Positions 6,805 to 61,617 of a DNA stretch of 64,000 bases are shown piece by piece. The notes under the pieces were generated by a model that was not told the origin of the DNA, searched no databases, and saw only the letters and a list, made by a program, of their open reading frames with translations. The stretch spans positions 2,808,356 through 2,872,355 of the forward strand of contig OY970295.1 of assembly GCA_963716185.1 (NCBI GenBank). The letters run 5' to 3'. The number at the start of each line of letters is the position of its first letter. The stretch's first letter is position 1. This DNA comes from Thermodesulfovibrionales bacterium (lineage in GTDB: Bacteria > Nitrospirota > Thermodesulfovibrionia > Thermodesulfovibrionales > SM23-35). Made by a program: the position numbers and the translations under genes.

Positions 6805-6826
6805 CCTTCTCAGTACTACATCATTT

Positions 6827-7807: not shown

Positions 7808-7910
7808 TGTGATATAATAATACCAAATCGGGCAAAGTTCAAAAGGGCGTGGAATATAAGGCAAAAATTCATTAGTACTCAGCCCGCTTTTAGTAAAAGG
7901 TGGAGGAAAT

Positions 7911-8906
7911 ATGTCTGAATTGAGAAAGGATCCGATATCAGGGAGATGGGTCATCATCTCGGTCGAAAGGGGGAAAAGACCGACTGACTTTGTTTCTCCT
8001 TCCCAGAGGAAAAAGGGGGGCTTCTGCCCGTTCTGTCCGGGCAACGAATATACTACACCATCGGAGATAATAGCCTTCAGGCCGTCCAACACAAAGCCGA
8101 ATTCCCCGGGATGGACATTAAGAGTCATGCCGAATAAGTTTCCCGCCCTCCAGATATATGGAGATCTGAATAAATCGGGAGAGGGCATTTTTGACAAGAT
8201 GAGCGGGATCGGCGCCCATGAGGTCATTGTGGAGACGCCCGACCATATGCTGACCCTTGCAACAATGTCTCTCAAGGCGGTTGAGGATGCTCTTTGGGCC
8301 TATTATTCGAGGTTGACAGACCTGAGGAGAGACCGCAGGTTTAAATACGTGCTGATCTTCAAGAATGAAGGAGAAGCTGCGGGAGCCTCGCTTGAGCATT
8401 CTCATACACAGTTAATTGCGCTGCCCATCGTACCTAAACTCGTTAAGGAGGAGATGGATTCCGCCAAGCGTTATTACGATTTAAAGGAGAGGTGCATATT
8501 TTGCGATGTCATTAGCCAGGAACTGGAGTCCCGGAAAAGGGTGATATACGAAAACTCACAATATGTCGCCATTGCGCCCTTCGCCCCGAGCGCGCCCTTC
8601 GAGACGTGGATACTGCCCAAGAGGCACGATTCGGGGTTTAATCCTCCCGACAACAATTTTTTGTCCCTGGCGGAGATGCTCCAGGTCATCTTAAAGCAGA
8701 TAGACAAGATACTCGATATCCCGCCGTATAATTTTGTTCTTCATACTTCACCCTTTTCGGATGAAGTGAACGATTACTACCACTGGCATATCGAGCTTGT
8801 GCCGAAACTGACAAAGATAGCGGGCTTTGAATGGGGTTCCGGTTTCTATATCAATCCGACTCCTCCCGAAGAGTCCGCAAGATTTATGCGCGAAGCAAAG
8901 ATATGA
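7911..8906 (+). CDS. galT: galactose-1-phosphate uridylyltransferase-family (HIT class) nucleotidyltransferase/phosphorylase
   Basis: 331 aa. CPFCPGNE zinc knuckle, active-site SLEHSHTQLIA (HxHxQ) and PFETWILPKRH. Confidence 0.85.
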   Translation: MSELRKDPISGRWVIISVERGKRPTDFVSPSQRKKGGFCPFCPGNEYTTPSEIIAFRPSNTKPNSPGWTLRVMPNKFPALQIYGDLNKSGEGIFDKMSGIGAHEVIVETPDHMLTLATMSLKAVEDALWAYYSRLTDLRRDRRFKYVLIFKNEGEAAGASLEHSHTQLIALPIVPKLVKEEMDSAKRYYDLKERCIFCDVISQELESRKRVIYENSQYVAIAPFAPSAPFETWILPKRHDSGFNPPDNNFLSLAEMLQVILKQIDKILDIPPYNFVLHTSPFSDEVNDYYHWHIELVPKLTKIAGFEWGSGFYINPTPPEESARFMREAKI

Positions 8907-10360
8907 AAATACTGATAGCTTCACCGGAGGCGGTGCCATATGTAAAGACAGGCGGCCTTGCAGACGTGGCCGGCGCCCTGTGCAGGGAGTTCATAAAAAT
9001 GAACGAGGAAGCGAGGGTCGTGCTGCCTTTATATAAAAGGATAAAGGACAGCGGTGCGCCGCTGCGGGACACGGGAATCATTATTGATGTCCCTGTTGGA
9101 GATAGAATTGTGGCAGGCAGGATTTTCAGCGACGGGCCGTCAAACTTTTTTATAGAATGTGATGAATTTTTTGATCGACCGGAACTCTACGGAACTCCGG
9201 AGGGGGATTACAGCGATAACGCATCGAGGTTCGTATTCTTCTCAAGAGGCATTTTTGAGGCGTGCAAGGCCCTCGGCTTTAAACCCGATGTCATTCACTG
9301 CAACGACTGGCAGACCGGTCTTGTCCCTCTCTATCTGAAGACAATATACAGGACCGACAAGTTTTTCAGGAATACTGCCGCCTTGCTGACCATTCATAAT
9401 CTTGGGTATCAGGGTCTCTTTCCCGCATCAGATATGCCCGTAACGAATCTCGGATGGGAGCTTTTCACCCCGGAAGGCATCGAATTCTACGGAAAGGTGA
9501 ATTTCCTGAAAGCAGGGCTGCTTTCTGCGGATGTCCTCAGCACTGTCAGTACCACCTATGCGAAGGAAATTCTCGATGAAGAACATGGATTTGGCCTGGA
9601 TGGTCTATTGAGGAGCAGGGCCGGTTCTCTTTTCGGCGTTATAAACGGCATTGATTACGAAGAATGGGACCCGGCGGCGGACAAATTAATACCTGCCAAT
9701 TACAGCCGTTCCGATATTTCGGGAAAAGCAGTCTGCAAAATGGAGCTTTTGAAATCGCAGTTCAAAACCCCAAAGAGTGTTGCCGCCCGGAGCATGCCGC
9801 TCATAGGCATGGTCACAAGGTTGTCAGAACAAAAGGGACTCGACCTTGTTGTTCAGTCAATCCCCGGTGTCTTGTCCTGCGGGGTGAAGCTTGTTGTTCT
9901 GGGAAAGGGTGACGAAAGGTACCATAAAAGCTTGTCCGACATATCGGCGCGTTATCGGGGCAAAGTCTCTGTTACGATCGGCTTTGATGAAAAGCTTGCG
10001 CACGAGATTTATGCGGGCTCGGATTTTTTTCTCATGCCCTCGAAATATGAACCGTGCGGGCTGGGCCAGTTGATATCTGAGAGGTATGGTTCCATCCCTG
10101 TGGCAAGAAGGGTGGGAGGACTTGCCGATACGATAAAGGACTTTGAACCGTTGACCTCAAAGGGTACGGGTTTCCTTTTTTCCGATTACACATCTCCCGC
10201 CATGCAGGATGCCCTGAAAAGGGCTTTTTGCGTCTACACGGACGACGGCAAAAGGAAAAGGTTGATGGAAGAGGGAATGAAGACGGATTTCTCCTGGAGT
10301 AAGTCGGCATTGAGATATATTGAACTTTACAAGGTTGCCCTTAAGAAGGAAAGGCTATAA
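8903..10360 (+). CDS. glgA: glycogen (starch) synthase
   Basis: MKILIASPEAVPYVKTGGLADV N-terminus. GT5/GT1 motifs HCNDWQTGL and PSKYEPCGLGQL. The ATG at 8903 overlaps the galT stop (ATGA). Confidence 0.9.
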   Translation: MKILIASPEAVPYVKTGGLADVAGALCREFIKMNEEARVVLPLYKRIKDSGAPLRDTGIIIDVPVGDRIVAGRIFSDGPSNFFIECDEFFDRPELYGTPEGDYSDNASRFVFFSRGIFEACKALGFKPDVIHCNDWQTGLVPLYLKTIYRTDKFFRNTAALLTIHNLGYQGLFPASDMPVTNLGWELFTPEGIEFYGKVNFLKAGLLSADVLSTVSTTYAKEILDEEHGFGLDGLLRSRAGSLFGVINGIDYEEWDPAADKLIPANYSRSDISGKAVCKMELLKSQFKTPKSVAARSMPLIGMVTRLSEQKGLDLVVQSIPGVLSCGVKLVVLGKGDERYHKSLSDISARYRGKVSVTIGFDEKLAHEIYAGSDFFLMPSKYEPCGLGQLISERYGSIPVARRVGGLADTIKDFEPLTSKGTGFLFSDYTSPAMQDALKRAFCVYTDDGKRKRLMEEGMKTDFSWSKSALRYIELYKVALKKERL

Positions 10361-10370
10361 AGTATAGCTC

Positions 10371-12806
10371 ATGGACACAGCGAATAGAGAAAAGTTCACA
10401 GAGGTAATTTTTGAAAATGTCCGCGACGGCATTGTAATACTCGATAGAAACTTCAAAATTCTGGCTGTGAACAATTCTATAGGGAAGTGGATCGACAGGC
10501 CGGTTCCGGACCTTATAGATAAGGACTGCAGAGAAGTGTTCCATGGAATCAGCTGGGTATGTCCTCATTGTGCAGCGGAGGTAACTTTCGAAAAAGGCGA
10601 GGTCAGTATTCTGACCCAGAAGAGTGAGATCAATCATCACGTCTCCTATGCCGAGATATCAGCTTATCCTATAACCGACGGGACGGGCGCAGTTGGTGAG
10701 TGTATAGTGTTTATTCAGGATATAACCGACAGGATGCTCTGTCATGATGAAGTCCTCAGGCTTTATAACGAGGTTACACAGACAAAGGAATATCTCGAAG
10801 GCGTCATTGAGAATTCAGCAGACGCGATAGTCACATCCGACCTGAACGGCATCATCACCTCCTGGAATAAAGGAGCGGAAAGAATATATGGGTTTAAAAA
10901 GGAAGAAGCGATCGGCAGATTTTTGCCTTTTATCCCTGATTTCGTTATCGACCCGGAATGGGAAAACAACCAGAGGATAAGGAACGGGGAAGCATTCAAA
11001 AGGACCGAGACGTTCAGGAAGAGGAAGGACGGTGCAACCATAACGGTAAGCCTTACACTTTCACCAATTAAGAACATAGCGGGAGAGGTTATCGGTGTAA
11101 GCGGTATATCGAGGGACATTTCGGAAAAGAAAAACGTTGAAAAAGAGCTGGTCAGGAGAAACCAGGAACTTTCAAGATTATTTTTTATAAGTTCAGCGAT
11201 GAGGGGGACCCTCGAGCTCGACAGGCTGTTGAGGATGATCCTTACCGCTGTTACGATGGGAGACGGCCTCGGATTCAACAGGGCGATCCTTTTCCTCGTT
11301 GATGAAAACAGGAATGTTTTAAAGGGGGCGATGGGTGTCGGTCCCGCAAGTTATGAGGAGGCTTTTCAGATTTGGAACAGGATCTCCGTGGAAAAGAAGA
11401 CGCTGCCGGATATTATGGGCGATATAGAGATAGGTACCCGGAAGAAGGATTCTTTCTTTGACAAACTGACTCTTGACATAGAGATACCCCTGACGGAAGA
11501 AACTGTCCTCGCAAAGGCGGTGAAGGAGAAGAGGATATTTAATATTGAGAATGTAGCGCAGGAACCTCTTTCGGATCCGGTCATTATACAACAACTGGGG
11601 ACCCGTGCTTACGCCGCTGTCCCTCTTGTATCGAGAAACAGGGTGATAGGAGTTCTCTGGGTTGACAACTTCTTCAATAACAGATCTATTACCGAGGAGG
11701 ACATAAGGTTCTTGACCGCCTTTTCGAACAACGTCGCGTCGGCCATAGAGAATGCCCGGCTCTTTGAACAGGTGAAATTGACGGAGCAGGAACTTGAGAA
11801 CATCTTCGAATCGATATCGGATTTGGTCTACTTTATCGGCGAGGATTATGTCGTCAAAAATATTAATAAGGCGGTGAGCAAGAGATTGGGTAAACCGCCG
11901 GAGGAAATAATAGGAAAGAAGTGTTATGAAGTATTTCACGGCACAAAGGAGCCATGGGCCGAATGTCCCCATCAAAAAACTGTTGAAATGAGAGAGGCCT
12001 TTGTAAAAGAAGTTCAGGACCCTTATATGGGCGGCACTTTCATTATCTCAAGCTCGCCGATATTCGATATGACCGGGCAGTTTATGGGCACCGTGAATGT
12101 GGTCAGTGATATAACCGAATTGAACACCCTGAGACAGCGTGTCGTAAAGACCGAGAGGATGGCCGCGTTGGGAGAGGTGGCGGCAAGAGTGGCCCATGAG
12201 ATCAGAAATCCTCTTGTTTCCCTGGGCGGATTTGCAAAAAGGCTCGAAAAGAAATTAGAAGGTAACCTGAAGGAATATGCCGATATCATTTCAAAAGAAG
12301 TGGAGAGGCTTGAGGATATATTGAATGATATCCTCAGTTTTGTAAAGGAAACGAGGATCAGAAAAGAGGCGGTCTATTCCAACAGACTCATGGAAGATGT
12401 CATTTCTCTCATAGGCCCTGAGATCGCGGAGAAGAACATAACTCTTGTCAGAGAATTCGGGGAACCCTTGGAGTTATTCGTTGATCCTAACAGGATCAGA
12501 GATGCCCTGTTGAACATAATGAAGAACGCTGTTCAGGCCATAGGGACCAACGGCACAATAATGCTGAGGACGTACAGGAAGAACAAATTTTGCGTACTCG
12601 AAATAAAAGACACGGGCCCCGGCATCGGCCAGGAAGATTTGCCTTTTATATTCGACCCCTTTTACACGACAAAGAAAGGGGGTACCGGACTTGGTCTCAC
12701 CGTAACACACAGGATTATAGAAGAACATGAAGGTAATATAGAAGTGGAAAGCAGACCGGGTGCGGGAAGCACATTTCGCGTTTTAATTCCATTGAAGATA
12801 ATTTAA
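10371..12806 (+). CDS. sensor histidine kinase (PAS-PAS-GAF-PAS-HisKA-HATPase)
   Basis: 811 aa. H-box VAARVAHEIRNPL and G-boxes DTGPGI...GGTGLGL. The first and last PAS domains both carry a C-x-EVFHG...CPH Cys/His motif. Confidence 0.9.
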   Translation: MDTANREKFTEVIFENVRDGIVILDRNFKILAVNNSIGKWIDRPVPDLIDKDCREVFHGISWVCPHCAAEVTFEKGEVSILTQKSEINHHVSYAEISAYPITDGTGAVGECIVFIQDITDRMLCHDEVLRLYNEVTQTKEYLEGVIENSADAIVTSDLNGIITSWNKGAERIYGFKKEEAIGRFLPFIPDFVIDPEWENNQRIRNGEAFKRTETFRKRKDGATITVSLTLSPIKNIAGEVIGVSGISRDISEKKNVEKELVRRNQELSRLFFISSAMRGTLELDRLLRMILTAVTMGDGLGFNRAILFLVDENRNVLKGAMGVGPASYEEAFQIWNRISVEKKTLPDIMGDIEIGTRKKDSFFDKLTLDIEIPLTEETVLAKAVKEKRIFNIENVAQEPLSDPVIIQQLGTRAYAAVPLVSRNRVIGVLWVDNFFNNRSITEEDIRFLTAFSNNVASAIENARLFEQVKLTEQELENIFESISDLVYFIGEDYVVKNINKAVSKRLGKPPEEIIGKKCYEVFHGTKEPWAECPHQKTVEMREAFVKEVQDPYMGGTFIISSSPIFDMTGQFMGTVNVVSDITELNTLRQRVVKTERMAALGEVAARVAHEIRNPLVSLGGFAKRLEKKLEGNLKEYADIISKEVERLEDILNDILSFVKETRIRKEAVYSNRLMEDVISLIGPEIAEKNITLVREFGEPLELFVDPNRIRDALLNIMKNAVQAIGTNGTIMLRTYRKNKFCVLEIKDTGPGIGQEDLPFIFDPFYTTKKGGTGLGLTVTHRIIEEHEGNIEVESRPGAGSTFRVLIPLKII

Positions 12807-12826
12807 TAATAAGAGGGAGGAGGTAT

Positions 12827-13177
12827 ATGAAAATACTTGTCGTTGATGATGACCAGCATATCCAAAGGCTTTATAAAGAAGAGTTCGAAGACGAAGGCTA
12901 TGAAGTTGTCGTGGCATCCAACGGAAAGGAAGCGATGGATCTCTTTGACAGTGAATCGCCCGACATCGTTACACTTGACATACTTTTGCCTGATGTGGAC
13001 GGCATCCGGATATTGAGGCAGATGAAAGAAAAGAACCCCAAGATACCTGTTATCATGTCTACGGCTTATGACTACAGGGACGATTTTGCCGTATGGGCTT
13101 CCGAGGCATATATAGTCAAATCTTCGGATCTTGAAGAGCTGAAGATCATGATAAAGAAGCTGCTCAGTAAAGAGTAA
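12827..13177 (+). CDS. single-domain response regulator (CheY-like receiver)
   Basis: 116 aa. MKILVVDDD, phospho-acceptor context IVTLDILLPDVDG and a conserved K in AYIVKS. Confidence 0.9.
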   Translation: MKILVVDDDQHIQRLYKEEFEDEGYEVVVASNGKEAMDLFDSESPDIVTLDILLPDVDGIRILRQMKEKNPKIPVIMSTAYDYRDDFAVWASEAYIVKSSDLEELKIMIKKLLSKE

Positions 13178-15165
13178 TGTCCCGCGACATTTACCTTGAA
13201 AGCACACCTTTACATGAAGCGCTCACAAAGTGGCTTAAAAGACTCGACTCCGAAGGGGTCTTAGAGCCGCTTCCGGGAGAGCGTGTCAGGGTCATAGATT
13301 CCCTCTGCAGGGTTACCGCAGAGGCGGTGACCGCAAAAATATCCTCCCCTTTTTATCATTCCTCGGCAATGGACGGTTATGCCGTCAGGTTTGCAGAAAC
13401 CTTCGGTTCATCGGAAAGGGCCCCCAAAAGGCTCAGGATAGGAGAACAGGCCGTATATGTTGATACGGGCGATCCTATGCCGGACGGATTCAATGCTGTG
13501 GTAATGATCGAGGACGTAAATATTGTAAAAGGTCAACAGTCATCCCCTCCGGATCCCCGCTGTGCAAAGGAGGGAAAAGAGAGGGGATGTGATTCAGAAT
13601 ATATCGAAATAATCTCCCCTGCGACGCCATGGCAGCACGTCAGGGTCATCGGTGAGGACATCGTGGCGACCGAATTGATACTGCCTGAAAACCAGCAAAT
13701 AAGGCCGGTTGATATCGGGGCAATGCTCGCGGGCGGCCGTCTCGATGTTATGGTCAGGCAAAGGCCGAGAGCGGTCATTATGCCGACGGGCACCGAAATC
13801 GTCGAACCGGGGTCCATTCTAAAAAGAGGCGATATAATCGAATACAATTCGAGGGTGCTGGGCGGGCTTGTATCTGAATGGGGAGGCGATCCGGTCAGAT
13901 TCAGGATTGTGCCCGATGACCTCGAACAGTTGAAAAAGGCTGTACTTGATGCGCATAGCCTGGGAGATCTGATTGTCATTAATGCGGGTGCGTCGGCGGG
14001 GTCAGAAGACTTCACGGCGAAGGCCATAGGCGATCTCGGAGAAATCATCCTCCACGGGGTGAGCATAAAACCCGGCAAACCCCTTGTCCTCGGCTGGGTG
14101 AAAGGGAAACCCGTGCTCGGTATCCCTGGCTATCCCGTGTCCGCTTTTATAACGTTCACCCTTTTTGCTAAACCGCTCTTTTATCGATGGCAGGGTCTCG
14201 AAATGAAAGTGCCCGAAATGATGCAGGCAAAGATCTCGAGGCAGGTTGCGTCAACACTCGGTCAGGAGGAATTCCTGAGGGTAAAGCTTGGAAAGGTCGG
14301 TGATAATTTTATTGCGACTCCTGTCACCCGGGGAGCGGGGGTACTGATGTCCCTCGTCAGAGCTGACGGTATCGTGCGAATACCTGCCATGTCCGAAGGC
14401 ATAGGCGCCGGTTCGGAGATTGAAGCGGAATTGATGAGATCCAGGAGAGATATAGAAAATACGATCGTATGTATCGGAAGCCATGACAATGCCCTTGATC
14501 TGCTCGCCAACATACTGAAGAAGAGATATCCGGGATATTCACTCTCGTCGGCGCATGTCGGGTCAATGGGCGGTTTGATGGCCCTGAAAAGAGGTGAGGC
14601 CCATATGGCCGGGACTCACCTGCTCGACGAGGAAACAGCGGAATACAACATATCATTTATAAAAAGACTTCTCGCCGGCAGAAAAATTGTGCTCATCAAT
14701 CTCGTTTACAGGGAGCAGGGGCTTCTGGTGCCCAAAGGCAATCCGAAAAATATCACGGGGTTTAAAGATTTAACGAGGGGTGACATCGTGTTTGTTAACA
14801 GACAGCCGGGAGCAGGCACCAGACTGCTTACGGACAAATGCTTAAGAGAACTCGGTATAAACAATCAGGATGTCAAAGGGTATGAAAGGGAAGAATATAC
14901 TCATATGGGTGTGGCATCGGCGGTCCTGTCAGGGGTTGCGGATACGGGCCTCGCAATCCTTGCTTCCGCGAGGGCGCTCGGTCTCGATTTTATTCCCGTA
15001 GCAAAAGAGAGATATGACCTTGCAGTACCCCGGGAGTCTCTGGATTTAGAGATGGTGGGATGTCTTTTGAAGATCATAAGAGAGGATGCCGAATTCAGAG
15101 ACACGGTCGCCGGGTTGGGAGGATATGATATTTCGGATATGGGCCGCATTATTTATGAGAGCTGA
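13177..15165 (+). CDS. moeA: molybdopterin molybdotransferase MoeA fused to a C-terminal periplasmic-binding-protein-like domain
   Basis: 662 aa. MoeA motifs SPFYHSSAMDGYAV and GVSIKPGKPLVLG. The last ~230 aa resemble a type-2 PBP fold. The ATG shares 1 nt with the regulator's stop codon. Confidence 0.8.
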   Translation: MSRDIYLESTPLHEALTKWLKRLDSEGVLEPLPGERVRVIDSLCRVTAEAVTAKISSPFYHSSAMDGYAVRFAETFGSSERAPKRLRIGEQAVYVDTGDPMPDGFNAVVMIEDVNIVKGQQSSPPDPRCAKEGKERGCDSEYIEIISPATPWQHVRVIGEDIVATELILPENQQIRPVDIGAMLAGGRLDVMVRQRPRAVIMPTGTEIVEPGSILKRGDIIEYNSRVLGGLVSEWGGDPVRFRIVPDDLEQLKKAVLDAHSLGDLIVINAGASAGSEDFTAKAIGDLGEIILHGVSIKPGKPLVLGWVKGKPVLGIPGYPVSAFITFTLFAKPLFYRWQGLEMKVPEMMQAKISRQVASTLGQEEFLRVKLGKVGDNFIATPVTRGAGVLMSLVRADGIVRIPAMSEGIGAGSEIEAELMRSRRDIENTIVCIGSHDNALDLLANILKKRYPGYSLSSAHVGSMGGLMALKRGEAHMAGTHLLDEETAEYNISFIKRLLAGRKIVLINLVYREQGLLVPKGNPKNITGFKDLTRGDIVFVNRQPGAGTRLLTDKCLRELGINNQDVKGYEREEYTHMGVASAVLSGVADTGLAILASARALGLDFIPVAKERYDLAVPRESLDLEMVGCLLKIIREDAEFRDTVAGLGGYDISDMGRIIYES

Positions 15166-24759: not shown

Positions 24760-24833
24760 TGGGGAGTCGTCCAGGGGCAGGACGGCAGACTCTGGATCTG
24801 CTTACAGGGGTTCGAATCCTCTCTCCCCAGCCA
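24760..24833 (+). tRNA. tRNA-Gln (anticodon CTG)
   Basis: Hand-folded cloverleaf: acceptor TGGGGAG/CTCCCCA, D stem GTCC/GGAC, anticodon stem GCAGA/TCTGC with loop CTCTGGA, T arm AGGGG-TTCGAAT-CCTCT, encoded CCA. Confidence 0.9.
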
Positions 24834-24837
24834 ATTC

Positions 24838-24913
24838 GGTCCCATCGTCTAGAGGCCTAGGACGTGGCCCTCTCAAGGCTAAAACACGGGTTCGAATCCC
24901 GTTGGGACCGCCA
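24838..24913 (+). tRNA. tRNA-Glu (anticodon CTC); integration target of the downstream islands
   Basis: Hand-folded cloverleaf: acceptor GGTCCCA/TGGGACC, D stem GTCT/GGAC, anticodon stem TGGCC/GGCTA with loop CTCTCAA, T arm ACGGG-TTCGAAT-CCCGT, encoded CCA. Confidence 0.9.
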
Positions 24914-24927: not shown

Positions 24928-26005
24928 TTATGCCTCATTATAGGCCGCTACATTTAAGGACTGTGCCCCTTTTTGTGCCCCCGACTTCATATCTAATACA
25001 GAAATAGCCTCTCTCAGGTTTTCAACTGAAAGATGAGCATATCTCTGAGTCATGCGGATATCTTTGTGTCCAAGCAATTTTGAGATTGTGTGAAGGTCAA
25101 CGCCTCTTTGTCTGAGATAACTCGCAAAAGTGTGTCTGAGGTCTGAGATCGTGGAAATGAAAGTTTTCTATTCCGGCAACTTCACACGCCTTTTTAAATA
25201 CCCGTTGAAGTTTAACTGGATATATTCTCTTACCGTTGTTGTGGAAGACGAAGTCTTCAATATCCTTTACTTTTTGCATTTCCCTGAATGTCTCAATTGC
25301 TTCAATCGTGAGCGGTAGCCCGATGCTCTCTTTGTTTTTCATTAGAGCGCCCTCGATTACCAAACACCGGGAAAAGAGATTTAGCCATGACCACTTCATG
25401 TTGAGAAGATTTGATTCTCTTAGACCTGTGTTAAGTGCGATTATCACTATAGATTTCAGCCATGCGGGGGCTGTCTTGTCATCGAGAGCATTAAACAGCC
25501 TGCCATATTCATCTTCACTGAGATACCGGACACGCTCATTTTTAACTTGCGGCATTTCGATTGAGTTTACAGGATTGTCCTTGATCCATTTCCATTTTTT
25601 AATGGCGACATTGAACATTCGTTTGAGAAGTCCCATTTCTTTTACTATTGTTGCGGGCATAATCCCCTTGGAATATCTATAACTCTCGTACTCTCCGATA
25701 AGTCTTTCAATGTCCTGTAACTGAGTGTCCTCTCCGAAGTAGGCTTCCAAGTGTTTAAAGATGCTTCTATCCCTTGCCTGATATTGTCTCCTTGAAGTGT
25801 ATTCGGCATCATATTTCTCAATCATCTCTTTTAGCGTTCTTCTTCGAGCCTCAATCCCAAACCATTCGCCTTCTGCAAGTTCATTTAAGACTTTTATCTC
25901 GATTTTTCTGGCAAGTTCCTTACTGCTTGTACCAGTTGACTTTCTTATTAATTTTCCTTGCCATTTAATCTTTATCCACCAGACTCGGCCCCTCTTTAAA
26001 AGCAT
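24928..26005 (-). pseudogene. tyrosine recombinase / phage-type integrase, frameshifted by a 7-bp tandem duplication
   Basis: The track ORF 25097..26005 ends ...HFHDLRPQTHFCELSQTKRR. Deleting one copy of gtctgag (25134-25140 / 25141-25147) restores HDLRHTFASYLRQRGVDLHTISKLLGHKDIRMTQRYAHL..., which carries the catalytic His and Tyr, down to a stop at 24928-24930. Confidence 0.85.
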
Positions 26006-28949: not shown

Positions 28950-29550
28950 AGGTAAGCCACTGGTTTGACCAGTGAGACTATAAAAGGTTTGACCTTGCAG
29001 GATTAAGTAAGATAAACCTCCAGAGAGGCTTGACGGTAGTCAAAGTCTATCTGGAGGTTTATGGATAGTTACAAGAGATTAACACACTCGAAGTACGATT
29101 GTAAGTATCATGTGGTATTTGTTCCCAAAGGTCGGAAGAAAACGCTCTTTGGGAAAATCAGGAAGTATCTGAAGGGAGTATTTCACGAATTGGCGCGGCA
29201 GAAGGGATGCGAGATCATTTCTGGGCACATGGCGATGGATCATGTGCACATGTGTATTTCGATTCCGCCGAAATACTCTGTCTCAGAGGTGATAGGGTAT
29301 CTGAAGGGCAAGAGTGCAATAGCCGTGGCACGGCAATTTGGAGACAAGCAGAGGAATTTCAATGGAGAAAACCTTTGGGCTCGCGGATATGCTGTGTCAA
29401 CGGTTGGCTTTGAGCTGGACAAGATCAAGGAGTACATTGCCCATCAGGAAAAGCTGGACAATGAACAAGAAGAGGGCAGGTTTTAGTATAAACCCAAACG
29501 GCCGTCTTTGAGACGGCTCATAACCGTCAAGCCTCCCTCTTTGAGGGAGT
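28950..29550 (+). mobile_element. IS200-type insertion sequence (tnpA only) with terminal hairpins; boundaries approximate
   Basis: Left hairpin cactggt-ttg-accagtg (28958-28974). An 11-bp stem aaacctccaga/tctggaggttt (29014-29024 / 29050-29060) covers the SD next to the ATG. Right hairpins are gccgtct-ttg-agacggc (29501-29517) and ctccctc-ttt-gagggag (29533-29549). Confidence 0.8.
29061..29486 (+). CDS. tnpA: IS200/IS605-family Y1 (HUH) transposase TnpA
   Basis: 141 aa. YDCKYHVVFVPKGRKK, HMAMDHVHMCISIPPKYS (HUH) and WARGYAVSTVG (catalytic Y). Confidence 0.92.
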   Translation: MDSYKRLTHSKYDCKYHVVFVPKGRKKTLFGKIRKYLKGVFHELARQKGCEIISGHMAMDHVHMCISIPPKYSVSEVIGYLKGKSAIAVARQFGDKQRNFNGENLWARGYAVSTVGFELDKIKEYIAHQEKLDNEQEEGRF

Positions 29551-29812: not shown

Positions 29813-30376
29813 ATGAACGATGAAGAAAAAACGAAAGAACAACTCATAAATGAATTGAAAGAATTGCGTGACGAACTTGCTTTTTTTAGAGCATTAAGTT
29901 CCGAAAAGATGCAAATTACAAGGGTATTAGAGGATTTTAAGGAGATATACGAGAATTTCTATAAATCCAATCCGCATCCAATGTGGATTTATGACCTCGA
30001 AACTCTCGCCTTTCTTGATGTCAACGATGCAGCTATAAAACATTATGGTTATTCACGGAAAGATTTTCTTTCTATGACCATCGAGGATATTCGCCCACCT
30101 GAAGATATCCCAGCACTTCTTGAAAATATCACAAAGGTTACTAAAGGGCTTGATGTAGCTGGCACATGGAGGCATATTAAAAAGGACAGAACTTTAATCT
30201 ATGTAGAAATCATCTCTCACACGCTGACTTTTGCAGGGAAGAAGGCTGAAATAGTTATGGCATTTAATGTCACCGAAAGAAAGCAGATGGAAAAAGAACT
30301 GAATGACTATAAGCAAAAATATGGTGAATTGCACCCTCCGTCTGATAACGATAATTTTATTGGTGGTTTAGCCTGA
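29813..30376 (+). CDS. coiled-coil + PAS domain protein without an output domain
   Basis: 187 aa. PAS core PHPMWIYDLETLAFLDVNDAAIKHYGYSRKDFLSMTIEDI...VTERK. No kinase or effector domain follows. Confidence 0.6.
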   Translation: MNDEEKTKEQLINELKELRDELAFFRALSSEKMQITRVLEDFKEIYENFYKSNPHPMWIYDLETLAFLDVNDAAIKHYGYSRKDFLSMTIEDIRPPEDIPALLENITKVTKGLDVAGTWRHIKKDRTLIYVEIISHTLTFAGKKAEIVMAFNVTERKQMEKELNDYKQKYGELHPPSDNDNFIGGLA

Positions 30377-36618: not shown

Positions 36619-37091
36619 AGAGTCCCTCCTTCAATATTGGTTGAGAGAAAGTATATCAAGAAGAAAGAATATAAACAAAAGGGGGAGAGCGGATCTTCCC
36701 GAAACTATTCAAGTTAAAAGAGGCTGGTGCGGTTATCGTGGGTTACCGATCGAGAGGGGAAAATTCCGCAGGGGCGTAAAATTACGTTTTCGTTAAAACT
36801 GGATCAGGGAAAAATTTTAAAATTTTGGCTACCTTCAAACTGGGGAAAAGCCGTTCTCCCGCTTTTTACTTTTTTGCTAAAGCAAAAAGTTCCCGAAATC
36901 TACCAAAACAAATTCGTTGACCTGCCAAAAGTATCTAAAAGACTGTGCCCCTTTTTGTGCCCCCTTAGCATGGAAAATAAGAGAAAATAATAGACACATT
37001 AGACACAATAGAAACTATAGAAATGGCTTAAAATAAGGCTTTGAAGGGAGACCAGCCACTATCAACGTTTTACAGAAAATCGCTTATTCGT

Positions 37092-37149: not shown

Positions 37150-37716
37150 CTTACAACGTTTCTGCCTGTATCTTCTCATCTAAACGTGAAGAAAACGTGA
37201 AGTTGAGCTTCGACATTGCACTTCTCAACGAGTCTACATTGAGGTGTGCTAAAACCGTCAGTATTGCTCTCCTCCGAACAGAGAATAGGTTCCTGCTGTC
37301 CGTCAAAGAGGGTTCTCATAGTATCTTTTATCGCTTCATAAGTTCGAAATAATGTGCCGAAACAAATAGAATAGGATAGTCACCACTGAAAGAAAAACCA
37401 TACCCGAGACAGATAATATTCCTCTTAGAACATTTCTTAGATCTTCTACGGAGAGGCGTCCGGCCCACAGCAGTTGTATGAATGGCCACAGTATGTGCGG
37501 CGTTAGTTTCATCCTAATACGCATTTTGAACATGGGTCATTAGGTGAAGATTATTCTCGGAAATGTGCAGTCGAGGGGTTGCCGCGTTTGTGACTTCCGC
37601 CTATCGATACAGGTGATAAAATAAAATATATATCATATGGTCACAAGACTATCAAAGATTTCCTTGGGCACGGTAAAGATGGAATAGAATATAACGTTTT
37701 CAGTACCGGATCGCAT

Positions 37717-38965
37717 ATGAATAGGAAACAAGCACACATTCGGCATACTCCTAAATTAGGAGCTTTAGAAATCCTTAAATATATAGGGCCTGGATTTATT
37801 GTAACTGTCGGTTTTATAGATCCAGGAAATTGGGCTGCAAATGTAGCTGCCGGATCAATTTATGGATACAACCTTCTCTGGATGGTCACTCTCTCTACTA
37901 TCATGCTTATATTTTTACAGCATAATGCCGCACATCTGGGGATTGTTACCGGACTCTGCCTTGCTGAGGCTTCTACAAAATTCTTGGGTAAATGGATGAG
38001 CAGGGTATTCTTAGTCAGTGCAGTATTCGCAGCTATATCTACAGCTTTGGCAGAGATTCTTGGGGCTGCTATAGGGTTAAATATGTTATTCGGGATACCC
38101 CTTATTATCGGCTCATTTCTTACATCTATATTGGTCATCTGGATGCTCATTTCCAACAGTTATAGAAAATTAGAAAAATGGATTATTGGTTTTGTTGCAC
38201 TTATAGGCTTTCATTCATTATTGAATTAATTATCGTAAAATTCCAGTGGTATGAGGCTCTTAAGAACGGTTTTGTACCTTCTTTTCCTTTAGGCTCTATT
38301 CCAATTATCATGAGCGTTCTTGGAGCTATAGTAATGCCACATAACTTATTTTTGCATTCCGAAATCATCCAGAGTCGGCAATGGAATCTTCAAGATAAAC
38401 AGATTATAAGAAGGCAATCTAAGTTTGAATTTACAGATACACTCACTGCAATGGTTGCGGGATGGGCGATAAATAGCGCGATGATAATTGTAGCTGCATC
38501 AGTTTTTCATTCCCACGGGATAACCGTTACGGAACTGTCACAGGCGGAAGCAACTCTTAAACCACTTGCAGGAAATGCTTCTGCAATTATTTTTGCTCTC
38601 GCGTTAATCTTTGCAGGTTTTTCTTCATCAATTACAGCAGCACTGGCCGGTGGAAGCATTTACTCAGGCATTTTCCAAGAGCCCTTTGATATCTCTGATA
38701 ATCATTCACGCATAGGTATAATGTAACTACTTTGGGTGCTCTTCTTATTATTTTCTTCATCAGAGACCCTTTCCAGGGTCTTATCTGGAGCCAAATTGCT
38801 TTAAGCATTCAACTCCCGTGGACTATTTTCGCACTTATTTCCCTTACTTCGTCTTCCAAAGTCATGGACGACTTTTCCAATAGTAAAAGTAATAAATTAT
38901 CTCTTTGGTTCATCGCTGCTATAGTTTCTTTTTTGAATGTAATGCTGCTTATTCAGATAATCTAA
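37717..38965 (+). pseudogene. mntH: NRAMP-family divalent metal transporter, broken by two frameshifts
   Basis: Three consecutive track ORFs in different frames (37717-38229, 38178-38726, 38732-38965) together spell an NRAMP protein (GPGFIVTVGFIDPGNWAANVAAGS..., MPHNLFLHSEI...). Confidence 0.8.
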
Positions 38966-55381: not shown

Positions 55382-55635
55382 GATAATATGATAATCCTTT
55401 ATGTGTGCCTTTTGTCAATACAATAATTCAGCATAAGAGCTCCGAGTCCCCTCTGTTTGTGAATCAGGTAGACCTACTGAATCTCATAAACGCACCGTGA
55501 AGAAAACGTGAAGTAAACATATCTAAAACGATATAAACATATCGAAACATATAGAAGAGGGGAGGGCGGTGAAAAGCTTAATCTGCAAGGGTTTTTCCGG
55601 TATTTTCAAGCACTTGTCAGATCCTGCCTTTAACT

Positions 55636-55689
55636 CTCTCAAGGCTAAGACACTGGTTCGAATCCCGTTGGGACCGTCAAGCAAAATTC
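55636..55689 (+). repeat. att copy C: decayed repeat of the tRNA-Glu 3' segment (island II / III junction)
   Basis: ctctcaaggctaaGacacTggttcgaatcccgttgggaccgTca has 3 substitutions in the tRNA-derived part, and the tail has diverged. Confidence 0.8.
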
Positions 55690-56054
55690 TTAATAATTAC
55701 GGTATCTTTCCTTATTTAAAACCATTCTACGGAATGCTAAGAAATTCGTCGAATGAGTATTCATTTTGGTGTTTTTGTTGGTGTTTTAGAAATAGCGGCT
55801 CCAGTCGAGTCTGGTGATGACTTCTTAGCTTTTGGGGACGACGTGGGGATGACGTAGCGTCGTCTTCAGAGATGAGTGCACGGCTACGGACAGTGAACGA
55901 TTAAGTCCTGTCTGCTCGTCTCTTTACGAAAGGAACACCTCTTCCTCACATTGACCGATGTAATTAACACCTCCTACAAGCAGAGAATTTTATAAATCGG
56001 GGGACTTATTTATTTCCAAAAGAATATTTGGTATAAAGCTGAGTTTCAGAATAC

Positions 56055-57038
56055 TTAAGTGCTACCCTCTCTATCACGAATTGTGAAGTAAAAAGTCGAA
56101 CCTTTTCCAGGTTTAGACTCTACCCAGATTCTTCCTCCATGATGTTCTACGATTTTCTTACAGACTGCAAGTCCTATGCCGGTGCCTTGATATTCGTTTC
56201 TTGTATGTAATCGCTGGAAGAGTGAGAATATTCGTTCAAAAAATCTCGGCTCTATTCCAATGCCGTTATCCTTAATAGGGAAAACCCATTCATCTCCTTT
56301 CTGTTCGGCTGAGATATGGATTTTTAGGGGTTCATTGCCACGAAACTTAATAGCATTGCCTATTAAGTTCTGGAATAATCGGCTTAATTGAGAAGCATCT
56401 GCCGTTACAGTTGGCAGGAGATCATATGTCAGTTCTACATTGCTTTCTTTTATAACTGTGCGAAGATTGTAAATAGCCTCCTCTAAGGCTACTGAGCAAT
56501 TTATAGGTCTAAAGTTTTGTCTCTTTGTCTCTACCTGTGAATACGTCAGCAGATCTTTAATGAGTAGTTCCATTATTTTGACACCTGAAACTATATAATC
56601 AATGAACTCATCAGCTTTTTCATCGAGTTTGTCTTTGTATCGTTTCTCCAGTAATTGCACAAAGCTCGCTATAGTACGTAAGGGTTCCTGTAGGTCATGT
56701 GAGGCTACATAGGCAAATTGTTGGAGATCGGCATTCGACCGAGCCAGTTCCTTCATTAATATCTTCGACTGCTCCTCCGCCTGCTTGCGTTTTGTGATAT
56801 CTCGAATGTTGCATTGGATAACTCTGTTGCCATTCACAAGATAAACGTTACTGACAAACTCCACGTTGATGTTACGACCGTCTTTTGTTTCAAGCGGCAA
56901 ATCTTCATAACGGATATAACCTTTCTTTTGCAATTCTGAAAAAGCATTCTGTGATGACACAATATCTTTAAAAAGACCGATTTCCCAGAGTTTCTTTCCC
57001 AAAAACTCCTCATGAGGTAATACACTATCGATTTCCAT
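56055..57038 (-). CDS. PAS - HisKA - HATPase histidine kinase (cytoplasmic)
   Basis: 327 aa. H-box YVASHDLQEPLRTI, N-box NLIGNAIKF, G-boxes DNGIGI...GTGIGL. Confidence 0.88.
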   Translation of the reverse strand: MEIDSVLPHEEFLGKKLWEIGLFKDIVSSQNAFSELQKKGYIRYEDLPLETKDGRNINVEFVSNVYLVNGNRVIQCNIRDITKRKQAEEQSKILMKELARSNADLQQFAYVASHDLQEPLRTIASFVQLLEKRYKDKLDEKADEFIDYIVSGVKIMELLIKDLLTYSQVETKRQNFRPINCSVALEEAIYNLRTVIKESNVELTYDLLPTVTADASQLSRLFQNLIGNAIKFRGNEPLKIHISAEQKGDEWVFPIKDNGIGIEPRFFERIFSLFQRLHTRNEYQGTGIGLAVCKKIVEHHGGRIWVESKPGKGSTFYFTIRDREGST

Positions 57039-57182
57039 TTACATGCTGCATCTTATTAAGTATATAGCTGAGTTGACAAGGAAGAAGATGAGACTTGGTC
57101 TTTCTATGTCTGATAGGGCGAGTCCTATCTTCTATATTTTCTATAAAAAAGGAGCTTATTGGCCGGGCTCGCTCAATACAAA

Positions 57183-58286
57183 TCAATTTAGATGTGAACT
57201 AAATATTTCATCAAAACGGAAAGCTATTTGGGTGAATGCATTCAAAACAGCAGGGTTAAAGTGCTGTGGCATTGTCCTTCCGTCTCCCTCCGTAATGGTT
57301 CTGAAAGCTTCTTCATGACTCAAAGGAGGCTTGTACGGTCGTTTACTTCTGAGAGCGTCATACTGGTCTACAAGCATAACTATCCTGCCTTCAAGCGGTA
57401 TCTCGTCCTCCATCAACCCTCTCGGATACCCTCCGCCACACCATCTTTCATGATGATTTAATGCAATGGATGCTGCCAACTGTATTATCGGATTCGATGA
57501 ATCTGCCAATATCTTGCTTCCGAGGGTAGTATGTGTTTTCATTGTCTCAAACTCTTCCACTGTCAGACTGCCTGGTTTTAAGAGTATATTGTCAGGTATC
57601 CCGAGTTTCCCTATATCGTGCAGCGGGGCCGCGAGGATTATTGTCTCGACCAAATCATTATCTGAGTCCAGAGCTCTGGCAATTTCCCTTGAATAGTATC
57701 CTATCCGAGCAATATGGGCACCCGTATCAGTATCCCTGAATTCAGCAGTTGTGGATAACCGCTGTATAATCTCTAAGCTCATGTTTTTGACAGTAGATAC
57801 GGCATCAGCCAATTCATTCGTTCTAAGCATAACAGTATCTTCCAGGGTATTTTGATAATTATTTTGAGTCTCTGTTTTTTTGTAATAGTGAATAGCTTTC
57901 TCTATGACACGGATAAGATTGGCTGACTTATACGGCTTTGTAACGAAATCAAAGGCACCTCGTTTTATCGCATCGACAGCAATATCAAGTTCCGCATATG
58001 CAGTCATTAAAATTACCGGGATTTCAGGTTTAACATTATGGATCTTCTCAAGAAGCTCGATACCTGACACCACAGGCATCCTGATATCTGTCAGTACAGT
58101 AACAATTCTATTGTCTTGTAATTTATTGATGGCATCTTCTGCGTTTTCACAAGTGATAACTGACAAGCTATGGGATCTGATCAATGAGGAAACAGCTTCA
58201 AGAACATCGATATCATTATCTACAACAAGGATCTTTCCTTCTGTGTTGGTACTTATTAATTCCGGCATTTTCTTCACTTCTCTCAA
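57183..58286 (-). CDS. response regulator with HD-GYP output domain (RpfG-like)
   Basis: 367 aa. REC (ILVVDNDID...VLTDIRMP) followed by HD-GYP ([11 protein letters not shown]...[14 protein letters not shown]). Confidence 0.88.
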
Positions 58287-58667
58287 AAGCTTTTATCAGC
58301 AATTCGATTATCTTTCCTTCTCTCAAGTTACTCTTAGTTTCAGCGCATACGGGAAAAATGTCAATCCTACCGGGGTAGGGATGGTCGAGGCCCTTCTTAA
58401 CTTAAGACTTGGTAAATTCGTTATCTATTTTTATTTGTACTCGTGAGAATTGTCGCAGGCGCAAGGGGTGTTTGTAACAGAAAGGAAGGAGGTATTATTG
58501 AAAAAAAGATCTTGATTGGTGTCATTTTCGAGCCGAACTAATTTAGGTCGTACTCGATCCCACCGCATCGCCTCAGTTAAAAAGGATGCTGCGACGCAAC
58601 TGGCCCTTTTGGTGTTTTTTGGGTGTCACTACTTATAACTAATTGATAAATAAAGAATGGCGAAGCT

Positions 58668-58721
58668 CTCTCAAGGCTAAAACGCGGGTTCGAATCCCGT
58701 TGGGACCGCCAATAAAATCAA
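58668..58721 (+). repeat. att copy D: 54-bp repeat of the tRNA-Glu 3' segment, 1 mismatch (island III / IV junction)
   Basis: ctctcaaggctaaaacGcgggttcgaatcccgttgggaccgccaataaaatcaa. Confidence 0.88.
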
Positions 58722-58825
58722 GCACTTAGAGCTATTTTGCACTTTCTGTCACTTCAGAATGTAGCAGATTTGTAGCAAGCGCATTGAACTTCAGGAATTG
58801 TTTTATATTTTGTTATAATTAGTGT

Positions 58826-59044
58826 ATGAAGACTGTAACTTTAAAAGAAAAAGCCATAAATATGCTGGAGAGCTTGCCAGAAGATAAACTTGAATCTGCA
58901 ATAGATTATCTAAAGTTCCTGCAGGGCGATTACGACTTGTATGATGTTAATAAGAACCTTAAAGAAGCCCTCAGCGAGGTTAAGTTAATAAGAGAGGGAA
59001 AGATAAAGACTAAAACGCTCAAACAATTTCTGAATGAGCTATAA
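58826..59044 (+). CDS. putative antitoxin of the downstream RelE/HigB-like toxin
   Basis: 72 aa. Overlaps the toxin ATG (59034) by 11 nt. N-terminal MKTVTLKEKAINMLESLPEDKLESAIDYLKFL. Confidence 0.55.
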   Translation: MKTVTLKEKAINMLESLPEDKLESAIDYLKFLQGDYDLYDVNKNLKEALSEVKLIREGKIKTKTLKQFLNEL

Positions 59045-59142
59045 AATAATCCCTGCCCCTCGTTTCCAAAGAGATGTTAAATTCCTCAAAAAGAAATATC
59101 GAAATATCATCTCTGATCTTGATGAATTCAACATCATCCTTA

Positions 59143-61100
59143 CCCATCTTCAACACTTCGCCAAAAATAATTTAGGAATAACAATAAGTTACGAGGGGGG
59201 GAAATAGGCGTGGCACTATGAAATGATCTATTCTTATGTTTTATGAGCATCATCTTAATCAAACCGTACTCTTATCGTCCGTGCTCATAATTCTCACAGT
59301 TGGTGGAACAGCTACCCCCGCTGCCTGAAATGCCTTGCCGGCATCTCCCTTCAGTTCGCTCCTGAGAAGAACTTCCTTGCCGCCGGTCTGTATCCTGATT
59401 TCTTTCACTTCCTCAAGATCATTCATAAGGTCTGCCCATTCTACCTGCCATCCTCTTTGATCCATTCGTCTCTGCAATTCCTTGATAAGAAGGAGTGACA
59501 GGAAGCTGCAAAATACATGGCCCCGTATTGTCTCATCACATTTGTGGTATATCGGTCGGGTACTCAATATGCTCTTCATAGTACGGAATATCTGCTCCAC
59601 CATCCACAGTTGTTTGTATTGAAGCGCTACCTCACGGGATGGCAGATCCGAATTAGTCGTTAATACCCATTTGCCGTCATACCGGGATTCTTCCTTTATC
59701 TTCTCTTCGTCTATTTGAAACCTCGTCCCCGTAAGCTTGAGATATTTCCTGTATCCTTTATTGCCGACCAGTGCCTTCTCGCTCCGTTTGATTTTATCCT
59801 TTAAGGTGGCAATGATCGTCTCCCTGTCCAAGGCGTCTTTCTTGGCTTGGTCTTCATTGAGACAAATAATATATCGCCTGTCTTTGGCTATGACCTCTTT
59901 GACTTTCAGCGGCGACGGGGACTTGCTGTGCGTTCCTTTCGGATACACCTCCTCATAACGGCCACCTCGCCCCATGACTTCTTCTTTCACCTCTTTCTGC
60001 CGTCTCATCCTGACCCCTAAAATATATTGTATCCCTTTCGTCCTCTCTATCTCTTTGATCGTCTCTTTGCTGATCATTCCCCTATCGGCCACTATACAAA
60101 CCCTCTGTATCGCAAACCGGCTCCTTAATCGATCCATCACCGGCAGCAACGTCTTCACATCTGTCGTATTGCCGGGCCAAAGCTCACAGCATATCGGCCT
60201 GCCTTCATTGTCTATGATAATCCCTACGACCATCTGCTTCAGATCAGGCCGATGATCCTTTGAATGCCCATAGGCCCCGATCTCCTCCCCTCCGTTTCCC
60301 TCAAAATAGATGCTCGTCGTATCAAAAAACACCAGGGTGAGGTCTCTGAATAAACTCCTCTCCCTTTGAAATATCCCCTCTTCGATCAGGTCCTTTATGC
60401 ATCTCGGTGCAAACGGCGTCGCCCCTTTTTGTTCTTCCTCCGGCAGCTCTTCCCCAAGCCATGCCATCGCCCTGTACAAATGATGAAGGTCTATCTTCTC
60501 CGTCCCGGCAATCTTGTACTGCTCCTTCCACTTCTCCGCCGCCCGGTCAGAGCCCGATACGCTTAATCTGTGCAGCACAGTTAAGAAGATCGCTCGCTCT
60601 ACCGGAAACTGATACTTCCTCTCCCCCAACAACTCTTCGATCACACACTGTATCCCAGTATCTTTCCATAACCGTCCAAATACCATAGGTATACCGACTT
60701 TTGCATCTTCCACTGAGGGAACAACGCCTTTTTCATAGGAGTCAATGATTGCCAGTTTTTCGGAAAAGCGCACCCCAGACCGCAGGAGACTGTCGAGTTC
60801 CCCTGTTTCTTCCAACCTGTCAAGGCGTCCCAAGGTGCCGATAACCTTTTGCCGGACATGTCCCTTATCCCATATGCTCTTTACGATTTGAATATATTTT
60901 CTTGGACCGGATGGCTTTATCCTGATAAACATAGCATTAGTATTATAGGTATTTAAGCACGACATTTCAACCTAATAATGCTATCAACGTGGCACTATGT
61001 TTGACCCTTATTCTCATTTGCTTTTCTCGTAAGTAGGCTTAAATACTGGGTTTCCGTCTTTGAGGTGTCGCTTTTTTAGGGGGCAACTGTTGAAAATGAG
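59143..61100 (-). mobile_element. IS1634/IS4-type insertion sequence (1958 bp)
   Basis: Terminal inverted repeats cccatcttcaacacttcgcc (59143-59162) and gggcaactgttgaaaatgag (61081-61100), with 15/20 complementary. 5-bp direct target duplication CCTTA (59138-59142 and 61101-61105). Confidence 0.8.
59259..60965 (-). CDS. IS1634/IS4-family DDE transposase
   Basis: 568 aa. The N-terminus FIRIKPSGPRKYIQIVKSIWDKGHVRQKVIGTLGRLD is typical of IS1634-type enzymes. D...D...E blocks (FFDTTSIYF, IVADRGMIS, ...YKQLWMVEQIFRTMK). Confidence 0.8.
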   Translation of the reverse strand: MSCLNTYNTNAMFIRIKPSGPRKYIQIVKSIWDKGHVRQKVIGTLGRLDRLEETGELDSLLRSGVRFSEKLAIIDSYEKGVVPSVEDAKVGIPMVFGRLWKDTGIQCVIEELLGERKYQFPVERAIFLTVLHRLSVSGSDRAAEKWKEQYKIAGTEKIDLHHLYRAMAWLGEELPEEEQKGATPFAPRCIKDLIEEGIFQRERSLFRDLTLVFFDTTSIYFEGNGGEEIGAYGHSKDHRPDLKQMVVGIIIDNEGRPICCELWPGNTTDVKTLLPVMDRLRSRFAIQRVCIVADRGMISKETIKEIERTKGIQYILGVRMRRQKEVKEEVMGRGGRYEEVYPKGTHSKSPSPLKVKEVIAKDRRYIICLNEDQAKKDALDRETIIATLKDKIKRSEKALVGNKGYRKYLKLTGTRFQIDEEKIKEESRYDGKWVLTTNSDLPSREVALQYKQLWMVEQIFRTMKSILSTRPIYHKCDETIRGHVFCSFLSLLLIKELQRRMDQRGWQVEWADLMNDLEEVKEIRIQTGGKEVLLRSELKGDAGKAFQAAGVAVPPTVRIMSTDDKSTV

Positions 61101-61338
61101 CCTTAGTGATAATCCTTTTTATGGTGAAGCCATCCCGGGGTTAGAAGGAAAGGTATTTAAGGCGCGTCTTGCAAGTTCGGATATGAAAAGCGGGAAAAGT
61201 AAAGGCTATCGCATAATCTGTTACGCTCTGATAAAGGAAAACACCATCTACTTGCTTACTATCTATGATAAGGCATATAAAGAAAACATCTCGGCGGGAG
61301 AAATTAAAGAAATAATTTTAAAATATGGACTTTAAACC

Positions 61339-61364: not shown

Positions 61365-61428
61365 TATTTCTGTTCGATGATAATGAGCGTATCGCTGAGT
61401 CATTCTGCCGTCCCTGTATCTCAAGAGT

Positions 61429-61617
61429 TTACCCTTCCGATTTCATTCTTGGTGCCTGCTGTTTCAGTCGTTCTGGCAGCCATACCTTTATGAGCGACTG
61501 GTAAGGCACATCTCGTTTATTTGCCTCAATGCGTATCGCTTCAAGGAGCGAGAGAGGTAGCCGCAAGGAAATGGATTGAGTAGAAGGCTTCAGATCCGGG
61601 AAACGGGCGCGAACCAT
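61429..61617 (-). CDS. brnA: BrnA-like (CopG/RHH) antitoxin, second copy; start uncertain
   Basis: ...FPDLKPSTQSISLRLPLSLLEAIRIEANKRDVPYQSLIKVWLPERL. Family-like sequence (KKLKAIPKFKSEAEERRFWETHDTTEYFD) continues upstream in frame to 61740, but with no canonical start codon. Confidence 0.55.
   Translation of the reverse strand: MVRARFPDLKPSTQSISLRLPLSLLEAIRIEANKRDVPYQSLIKVWLPERLKQQAPRMKSEG

Follow-up and report, generated by a model that had tools for sequence, protein, structure and literature searches.

A probable CIME-like remnant carrying a REC-HD-GYP regulator and a truncated histidine kinase in a tandem tRNA-Glu(CTC) array of a Thermodesulfovibrionales bacterium

The segment at positions 55686-58665 of a 64,000-nucleotide stretch of contig OY970295.1 (Thermodesulfovibrionales bacterium, assembly GCA_963716185.1; the whole stretch is hereafter called the window, and all positions count from its first letter) is best explained as the third, decayed element of a tandem accretion array at a tRNA-Glu(CTC) gene, an element that resembles the cis-mobilizable elements (CIMEs); we give this reading a probability of about 0.62. 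CIMEs have retained their att sites and lost the genes for integration and transfer, and are placed in an accretion scenario (PMC5704250). The segment, which we call element III, fits this definition because its att sites are kept and it holds no integration or transfer genes, and most likely it is what remains, without an integrase, of an element that integrated long ago. The original prediction for this DNA had described positions 55690-58667 as an att-bounded mini-island with a histidine kinase and a REC-HD-GYP response regulator as its only cargo, moving, or left behind, as a self-contained unit. The coordinates and the gene content given there are correct, and of the two options it offered, being left behind is the better one.

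The bounds of the segment are set by copies of a tRNA gene end. A tRNA-Gln and a tRNA-Glu(CTC) are predicted at 24760-24913 (ARAGORN), and the tRNA-Glu(CTC) gene (24838-24913, plus strand) is the integration target, with its 3' part as att copy A. A 22-nt core, GGTTCGAATCCCGTTGGGACCG, which corresponds to the T-arm/acceptor part of tRNA-Glu, occurs in four exact plus-strand copies, at 24889 (within the tRNA-Glu(CTC) gene), 37112, 55655 and 58687, and was matched in none of 100 shuffles. When aligned, the att copies extend to approximately 52-60 nt, beginning at the anticodon loop (CTCTCAAGG) and ending about 10-14 nt beyond the tRNA end. Copies A and B are identical and copy D has one mismatch in its tRNA part, while attC is the most diverged of the four, with about 5 mismatches and a different 3' flank. 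Both attC (55634-55685, plus strand), which bounds element II on the right and element III on the left, and attD (58666-58717, plus strand), which bounds element III on the right and a fourth element on the left, are partial tRNA-Glu 3' ends; they are 88% identical and have the 22-nt core in common. The array as a whole therefore shows at least three direct copies of the tRNA 3' end with the complete tRNA at one end, and element III within it is bracketed by direct repeats (attL and attR) from the 3' end of the target gene. An Rfam search of the window between 54 and 64 kb gave no match. Scanning viral contigs with the att core returned only other tRNA genes with an identical T-arm in phage contigs (mostly tRNA-Asp, as read by eye from the GTC anticodon), which are irrelevant here.

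The separation of the array into elements is seen most directly in the arms of the att sites. When 150-400 nt on each side of every att copy were compared, every interval was found to have its own matched motif, a tandem heptamer or octamer with a spacing of 11-12 nt. In element I (the interval from A to B) the motif is TGTGCCCC, present twice in the left arm (24962-24981, plus strand, 49 nt after the tRNA-like end) and again in an identical right arm at 36944-36963, which lies 128 nt before the next att. In element II (from B to C) it is CGTGAAG, twice at 37185-37202 (plus strand, also at +49), with an identical right arm at 55496-55513, 121 nt before the next att. For element III (from C to D) the motif is TTGGTGT, twice in the left arm from 55766 (+87) and again in the right arm from 58609, which lies 40 nt before the next att, and for element IV (from D onward) it is TGTAGCA-N4-TGTAGCA at 58760-58777 (plus strand, +49), which is unpaired, its partner not being in the window. 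More precisely, the left (P') arm of element III reads TTGGTGT-N5-TTGGTGT (55766-55784, plus strand) and the right (P) arm TTGGTGT-N4-TGGGTGT (58609-58626, plus strand), so that the two differ by one mismatch and by 1 nt in spacing.

The match between these two arms does not seem to be accidental. The word TTTTGGTGTTTTT is common to 55764-55776 and 58607-58619, lying within the tandem heptamer pair at both places, and a shared word of 13 nt or longer arose in just 2 of 3000 Markov simulations and in none of 3000 random pairs of low-GC segments; the paired arm motif that had been claimed for the segment is thus real. Cognate arm pairs have 24, 19 and 13 nt in common, as compared with 6-10 nt for the nine non-cognate combinations, and exact tandem heptamers at 11-12 nt spacing number only 20 in the 64 kb, with 6 of them adjoining att cores. 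Protein binding to the heptamers is suggested by their position, and we refer to them as putative arm-type sites. With distinct arm repeats in each interval, the elements in the array number at least four, and attD marks an internal junction and not the boundary to the backbone.

The arm pairs also bear on the possibility that the segment does not form a separate element, with attC being an internal or secondary att-like copy and the DNA from 55.7 to 58.7 kb belonging to element II as its tail, or to the element starting from attD as its head. This would account for the lack of a mobility gene in element III and for an arm geometry that is unlike that of the other three, and it would agree with an intact relative of the kinase (on contig L012) lying near XFP phosphoketolase and PLD genes, which are gene types of element II. 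However, the arm pair of element II (CGTGAAG twice) already closes at 55496, just left of attC, and a separate matched pair brackets the interval from C to D with a P of approximately 0.001, against at most 10 nt for non-cognate combinations, and we consider this alternative very unlikely.

Element III contains just two credible genes, both on the minus strand, and neither an integrase nor a remnant of one was found between C and D by Pfam, by tblastn with a reconstructed integrase or by reading in six frames, which agrees with what had been predicted; no integrase trace adjoins attC or attD. The neighbouring elements are themselves in decay. The tyrosine integrase of element I, adjoining the tRNA (24931-26005, minus strand), is split by a 7-bp tandem duplication, CTCAGAC (25134-25147), within its HDLRHT box, and the resulting frameshift, which is not of the homopolymer type of assembly error, cuts the last catalytic His and Tyr off from the remainder of the protein. 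From the integrase of element II only about 16 C-terminal codons are left, AHLNVDSLRSAMSKL at 37202-37249 (minus strand) beside attB, and a short integrase-like C-terminal remnant, GRMTQRYAHY, lies at about 61383-61430 (minus strand), roughly 2.7 kb past attD. The left arm repeats of elements I and II overlap with the 3' ends of their integrase genes. An intact integrase is absent from all of the elements in the window, and nothing in the window could now move them. The integrase of island I, considered as a helper for the segment, was rejected in this role on account of its frameshift and of its TGTGCCCC arm repeats, which differ in both sequence and position from those of element III.

The clearest sign of decay within element III is a deletion in its kinase gene. 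The gene (56055-57038, minus strand) encodes a histidine kinase of 327 aa with a partial PAS domain, HisKA (Pfam, E = 6.7e-13) and HATPase_c (E = 1.1e-29); its ATPase domain is intact, and so is the H-box, SHDLQEPLR. Its first approximately 75 residues correspond to the C-terminal two thirds of a PAS fold, in line with the start inside a shortened PAS that had been noticed before, the Met is directly preceded by a stop codon, and no PAS family scored above the Pfam threshold in the 327-aa protein. The closest homologues (P0128-P0134) have 414-417 aa with a complete PAS and are 82-90% identical over residues 95-414, and the window kinase aligns with just these residues of the intact 414-aa P0129, in which the PAS fold spans residues 59-169. 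What is missing is thus residues 1-94, which comprise an N-terminal coiled coil together with the opening 36 of the 111 residues in the PAS fold.

The course of this loss can be followed by alignment with a JGI metagenome contig, L014, of which positions 292-1718 correspond to window positions 58437-57008 with 94.9% identity and positions 2211-2516 to window positions 57016-56711 with 91.5% identity. The 492 bp in between (L014 1719-2210) are missing from the window; they hold the kinase upstream region and its first 94 codons, and their loss explains the shortened PAS. The deletion junction lies at 57008-57016 (minus strand), short repeats or microhomology (TTCCTCAT and TATTCTCAT) are found at the deletion ends, and the first 7-9 codons of the kinase are former intergenic DNA, with the ATG at 57038 fused in frame. 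The pair is thus not self-contained, contrary to the original prediction, since its kinase has lost its upstream region and first 94 codons. Scanning the segment for promoters and terminators gave counts not above those of shuffles. A TTGTCA-18-TAAGAT site is present at 57079-57050, upstream of the truncated kinase, and does not count as evidence of expression. The truncated kinase keeps its DHp and catalytic domains but, if it is expressed at all, would probably not respond to its normal signal, judging from the residues that it lacks.

The second gene is in a different state. The REC-HD-GYP response regulator (57183-58268, minus strand, 361 aa) is apparently intact, with Pfam matches to Response_reg (E = 1.1e-26) and HD_5 (E = 2.7e-29). 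All of its REC motifs, including those of the phospho-acceptor, are present (VVDND, TDIRMP, LMTAY, TKPY), as is the HD motif PLHDIGK, and a Cys replaces the Asp of the canonical HHExxDGxGYP signature. This Cys variant occurs in 32 of 126 close homologues and appears to mark a subfamily, not a lesion. The protein aligns with PmGH (4mcw; E = 3.5e-45) in its HD, HH and GYP motifs and also with PA4781 (4r8z), and by this homology it is a predicted phosphorylation-controlled phosphodiesterase of cyclic di-GMP (c-di-GMP). It scores 207.8 bits with an NCBIfam NosR-family model, below the cut-off of 400 bits. The regulator is under purifying selection according to a dN/dS analysis, and it differs from its homologue on contig L001 by 1 non-synonymous and 6 synonymous changes.

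Another question is whether the pair travels as a unit, that is, whether the segment is a natural non-autonomous mini-island, moved in trans by a helper integrase and spreading a c-di-GMP-degrading two-component pair. Both att copies and both arm repeats are kept, C and D retain an identical 22-nt core where crossover could occur, the regulator is apparently intact and under purifying selection, and the pairing of regulator and kinase is seen also in L014, all of which would be expected of such an island. On the other hand, the kinase is truncated by deletion, no intact integrase is present in the window and none was found from an element with matching arms, and the right arm is absent from the matching place in L014, whose 291 bp upstream of the shared region are unrelated to the window's right arm. 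The kinase is also usually found without this regulator, which is missing beside four of its five other close copies, all four of them full-length. L014 is the only locus besides the window with the two genes adjacent; on contigs L012, L095, L096 and L097 and on the contig of P0134 the kinase has no REC-HD-GYP neighbour and has different genes on both sides, so that the conserved neighbourhood of a cognate two-component operon is not seen. The regulator family, for its part, adjoins quite different kinases and other genes, including a PAS-PAS kinase (L001), a Cache-HAMP-GAF kinase by metG and holB (L005), IS21 (L003), a glyoxalase (L013) and a PilZ-REC gene with integrases (L002/L004), which speaks against the pair as a conserved unit.

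The bounded unit itself has no second copy in any of the collections searched. Neither the att core (with up to 4 mismatches) nor the arm motif of element III was found at any of the 97 fetched regulator or kinase loci, and a metagenome pattern scan for the att core, a gap and a pair of TTGGTGT had no matches. No tRNA or att lies within 10 kb in the seven closest of the nine regulator loci from genome contigs, and no tRNA was found in the available flanks (up to 10 kb) of the scanned loci. A metagenome scan with the kinase gave only distant kinases (at most 71% identity), with a REC-HD-GYP gene near 1 of 80 loci, and is uninformative. We regard the mini-island as unlikely on the whole.

The same loci suggest how the two genes may have come to lie where they do. 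A kinase module (55973-57079, minus strand, with 492 internal bp missing in the window) is common to L012, L014, L095, L096, L097 and the window; it comprises about 1.5 kb, namely the gene with approximately 210-280 bp upstream and 20-80 bp downstream, and its six loci are 83-93% identical at the nucleotide level with unrelated flanks on both sides and a left boundary at three positions within about 70 nt. In the window the module is bracketed by a 21-nt direct repeat (56025-56045 and 57054-57074) that is 86% identical and, by rough estimate, of borderline significance; this repeat was not found elsewhere. Mobility of the module in the manner of an integron cassette or an insertion sequence (IS) was considered and rejected: inspection by eye showed neither terminal inverted repeats nor GTTRRRY-type sites, and the left boundary shifts over about 70 nt. 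For the regulator, the upstream region (58269-58472, minus strand) is conserved with L014 to 58437 and with L002 to 58472, and positions 1-1248 of L001 match window positions 57183-58391 with 99.4% identity that ends exactly at the regulator stop codon; downstream, L001 has a different PAS-PAS kinase, a REC gene, DsrE and cobalamin genes.

It may then be that the regulator and kinase were placed piecemeal, by homologous recombination or gene conversion among paralogues, in which case the cargo would tell nothing of the original element. Both modules (the regulator from 57183 to about 58400-58470) recur in unrelated contexts with sharp boundaries, the identity to L001 reaches only to the regulator stop codon, and a regulator paralogue that is 82% identical exists (P0004). 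Two origins of the L001 junction are conceivable: paralogues may have undergone recombination or gene conversion recently, or the metagenome assembly may be chimeric, as its contig begins 162 bp upstream of the gene and comes from the same sample as L002. The kinase module's three left boundaries within about 70 nt argue against a precise mechanism. Moreover, piecemeal placement is compatible with a decayed accretion element and does not exclude it. As an explanation of its own we find it rather unlikely.

We return to the decayed accretion element and to how it would have arisen. The elements would have accreted one by one at the 3' end of tRNA-Glu(CTC), each arrival proceeding by tyrosine-integrase recombination between attP and the tRNA 3' end and leaving a partial tRNA copy at the far end, and each element would have brought a separate pair of arm-type heptamer repeats, placed next to its two att copies. 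Element III would later have lost its integrase and transfer genes while keeping both att copies and both arms. We favour a decayed remnant over a designed mini-island because of the 492-bp deletion, the most degenerate att copy and arms, and the decaying neighbours, and because no second bounded copy was found in any collection searched. Independent movement of element III is unlikely, and it could be movable only via a cognate integrase elsewhere in the genome or by composite excision.

Several observations weigh against this interpretation. No larger, integrase-bearing parent element with TTGGTGT arms was found in the 97 loci or the metagenome pattern scan, so that derivation by deletion is inferred from the local decay; of the notion of an eroded core of a much larger element, which the original prediction had named as its own refutation, the erosion is evident and the larger parent is not. 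Most of the comparison contigs are short (1.8-4 kb), which puts more distant att sites out of view. The arm geometry of element III (+87/-40 nt) is unlike that of elements I, II and IV (+49 nt) and of the right arms of I and II (-121 to -128 nt), and may reflect another type of integrase or rearranged arms. Finally, dN/dS of the truncated kinase (0.21-0.32) does not discriminate it from intact copies (0.13-0.33 among themselves), and the remaining 319 kinase codons are free of any stop or frameshift; the deletion is therefore recent, or the remnant is still useful or tolerated.

The left-arm position shared by elements I, II and IV, at +49 in each but with different heptamers, suggests related integrases whose arm specificity has diverged. 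A further explanation takes this as its starting point, and holds that a tRNA-Glu integrase family rapidly diversifies its arm specificity, so that stacked elements are not cross-excised, with element III as a non-autonomous rider that can be mobilised by a cognate integrase elsewhere in the genome. We hold this to be decidedly unlikely.

With regard to present function, the regulator is likely one more predicted REC-HD-GYP c-di-GMP phosphodiesterase among several in the genome, and its input may come from a non-cognate kinase or from the remnant one. The backbone protein at 150-2402 is indeed a second HD-GYP protein, with the domain order GAF-HisKA-HD_5. A scan of genome contigs with the regulator gave nine loci, and the closest named genomes are metagenome-assembled genomes (MAGs) of Thermodesulfovibrionales and Nitrospiraceae that have several paralogues; by these matches, the closest sequenced relatives of the host appear to be Thermodesulfovibrionales/Nitrospirota MAGs. 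In one such Thermodesulfovibrionales MAG (L002/L004, 1-9800), a 78% identical regulator paralogue lies just past a primase-integrase element that comprises a DnaG/Toprim protein and two integrase genes; neither a tRNA nor an att core was found at this locus.

The other elements of the array carry varied cargo. Element I holds an IS200-type Y1 transposase and a stand-alone PAS-only open reading frame (ORF) of 187 aa (29061-29486 and 29813-30376), the latter of which may be another fragment of a sensor protein. Element II, with a GC content of about 0.5 that is backbone-like, has an Nramp gene apparently split by a frameshift into two overlapping ORFs (37717-38726), an IS630-type transposase, and at 40205-44729 genes for an XFP phosphoketolase, a PLD-type enzyme, a P-type ATPase, an M50-CBS protein and YflT. 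The intact kinase of L012 sits in a similar stress-type neighbourhood (3667-13547; BON, XFP, Usp and PLD), and the XFP genes of L012 and element II are 67% identical at the DNA level. Downstream of attD, the arm repeat of element IV is followed by small toxin-antitoxin-like ORFs, an IS4-type transposase, a PIN gene and the integrase-like remnant mentioned above. The IS4-type DDE transposase (568 aa, 59259-60965) lies between small ORFs at 59034-59200, which has no Pfam match, and 61060-61335, which has a weak, sub-threshold match to RelE; a toxin gene may thus have been interrupted by the IS, for which no clear terminal repeats were found.

Structures of this kind are known, and the segment would be another case of the type, a CIME-like remnant in a tRNA accretion array. 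Tandem accretion of islands of the integrative and conjugative (ICE) and integrative and mobilizable (IME) type at tRNA genes, and the elements related to ICESt1, have been reviewed (PMC5704250), and with CIMEs and ICESt1-type arrays element III shares the attL/attR-type repeats of the target 3' end, the absence of integration and transfer genes and the tandem arrangement with mostly decayed elements at the same site. It differs from them in that the window holds no functional partner element, that the host is of an uncultured Nitrospirota type and not a Firmicute, and that the arm repeats differ between neighbouring elements. Because the arm repeats differ between neighbours, cis-mobilisation of element III by a neighbour is doubtful. 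The att sites are like those of lambda-type tyrosine integrases in having a tRNA-shared core and short direct repeats in both arms at fixed distances, although the spacing in element III departs from that in the other three elements. As in RpfG-type regulators, a REC domain with acidic pocket, acceptor Asp, Thr and Lys motifs precedes the HD-GYP domain, but the window protein has a Cys for the canonical Asp in HHExxDGxGYP, and the closest solved HD-GYP structures are PmGH and PA4781. The kinase resembles the cytoplasmic PAS-HisKA-HATPase kinases P0128-P0134 in its intact H-box and ATPase domain and differs in lacking residues 1-94 and the native upstream region.

The segment provides a clean example, from the poorly studied uncultured Thermodesulfovibrionales/Nitrospirota, of islands stacking up at a single tRNA gene and then decaying to integrase-less remnants with signalling genes. 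It also calls for some caution, as a gene pair may lie between att sites without having been designed as a mobile module; the kinase of this segment is what a deletion has left, and its pairing with the regulator is specific to the lineage. What can best be reused from the analysis is the set of element-specific arm heptamers at fixed positions, which could serve to delimit such elements in related genomes and to ask how integrases that share a core avoid mutual interference.

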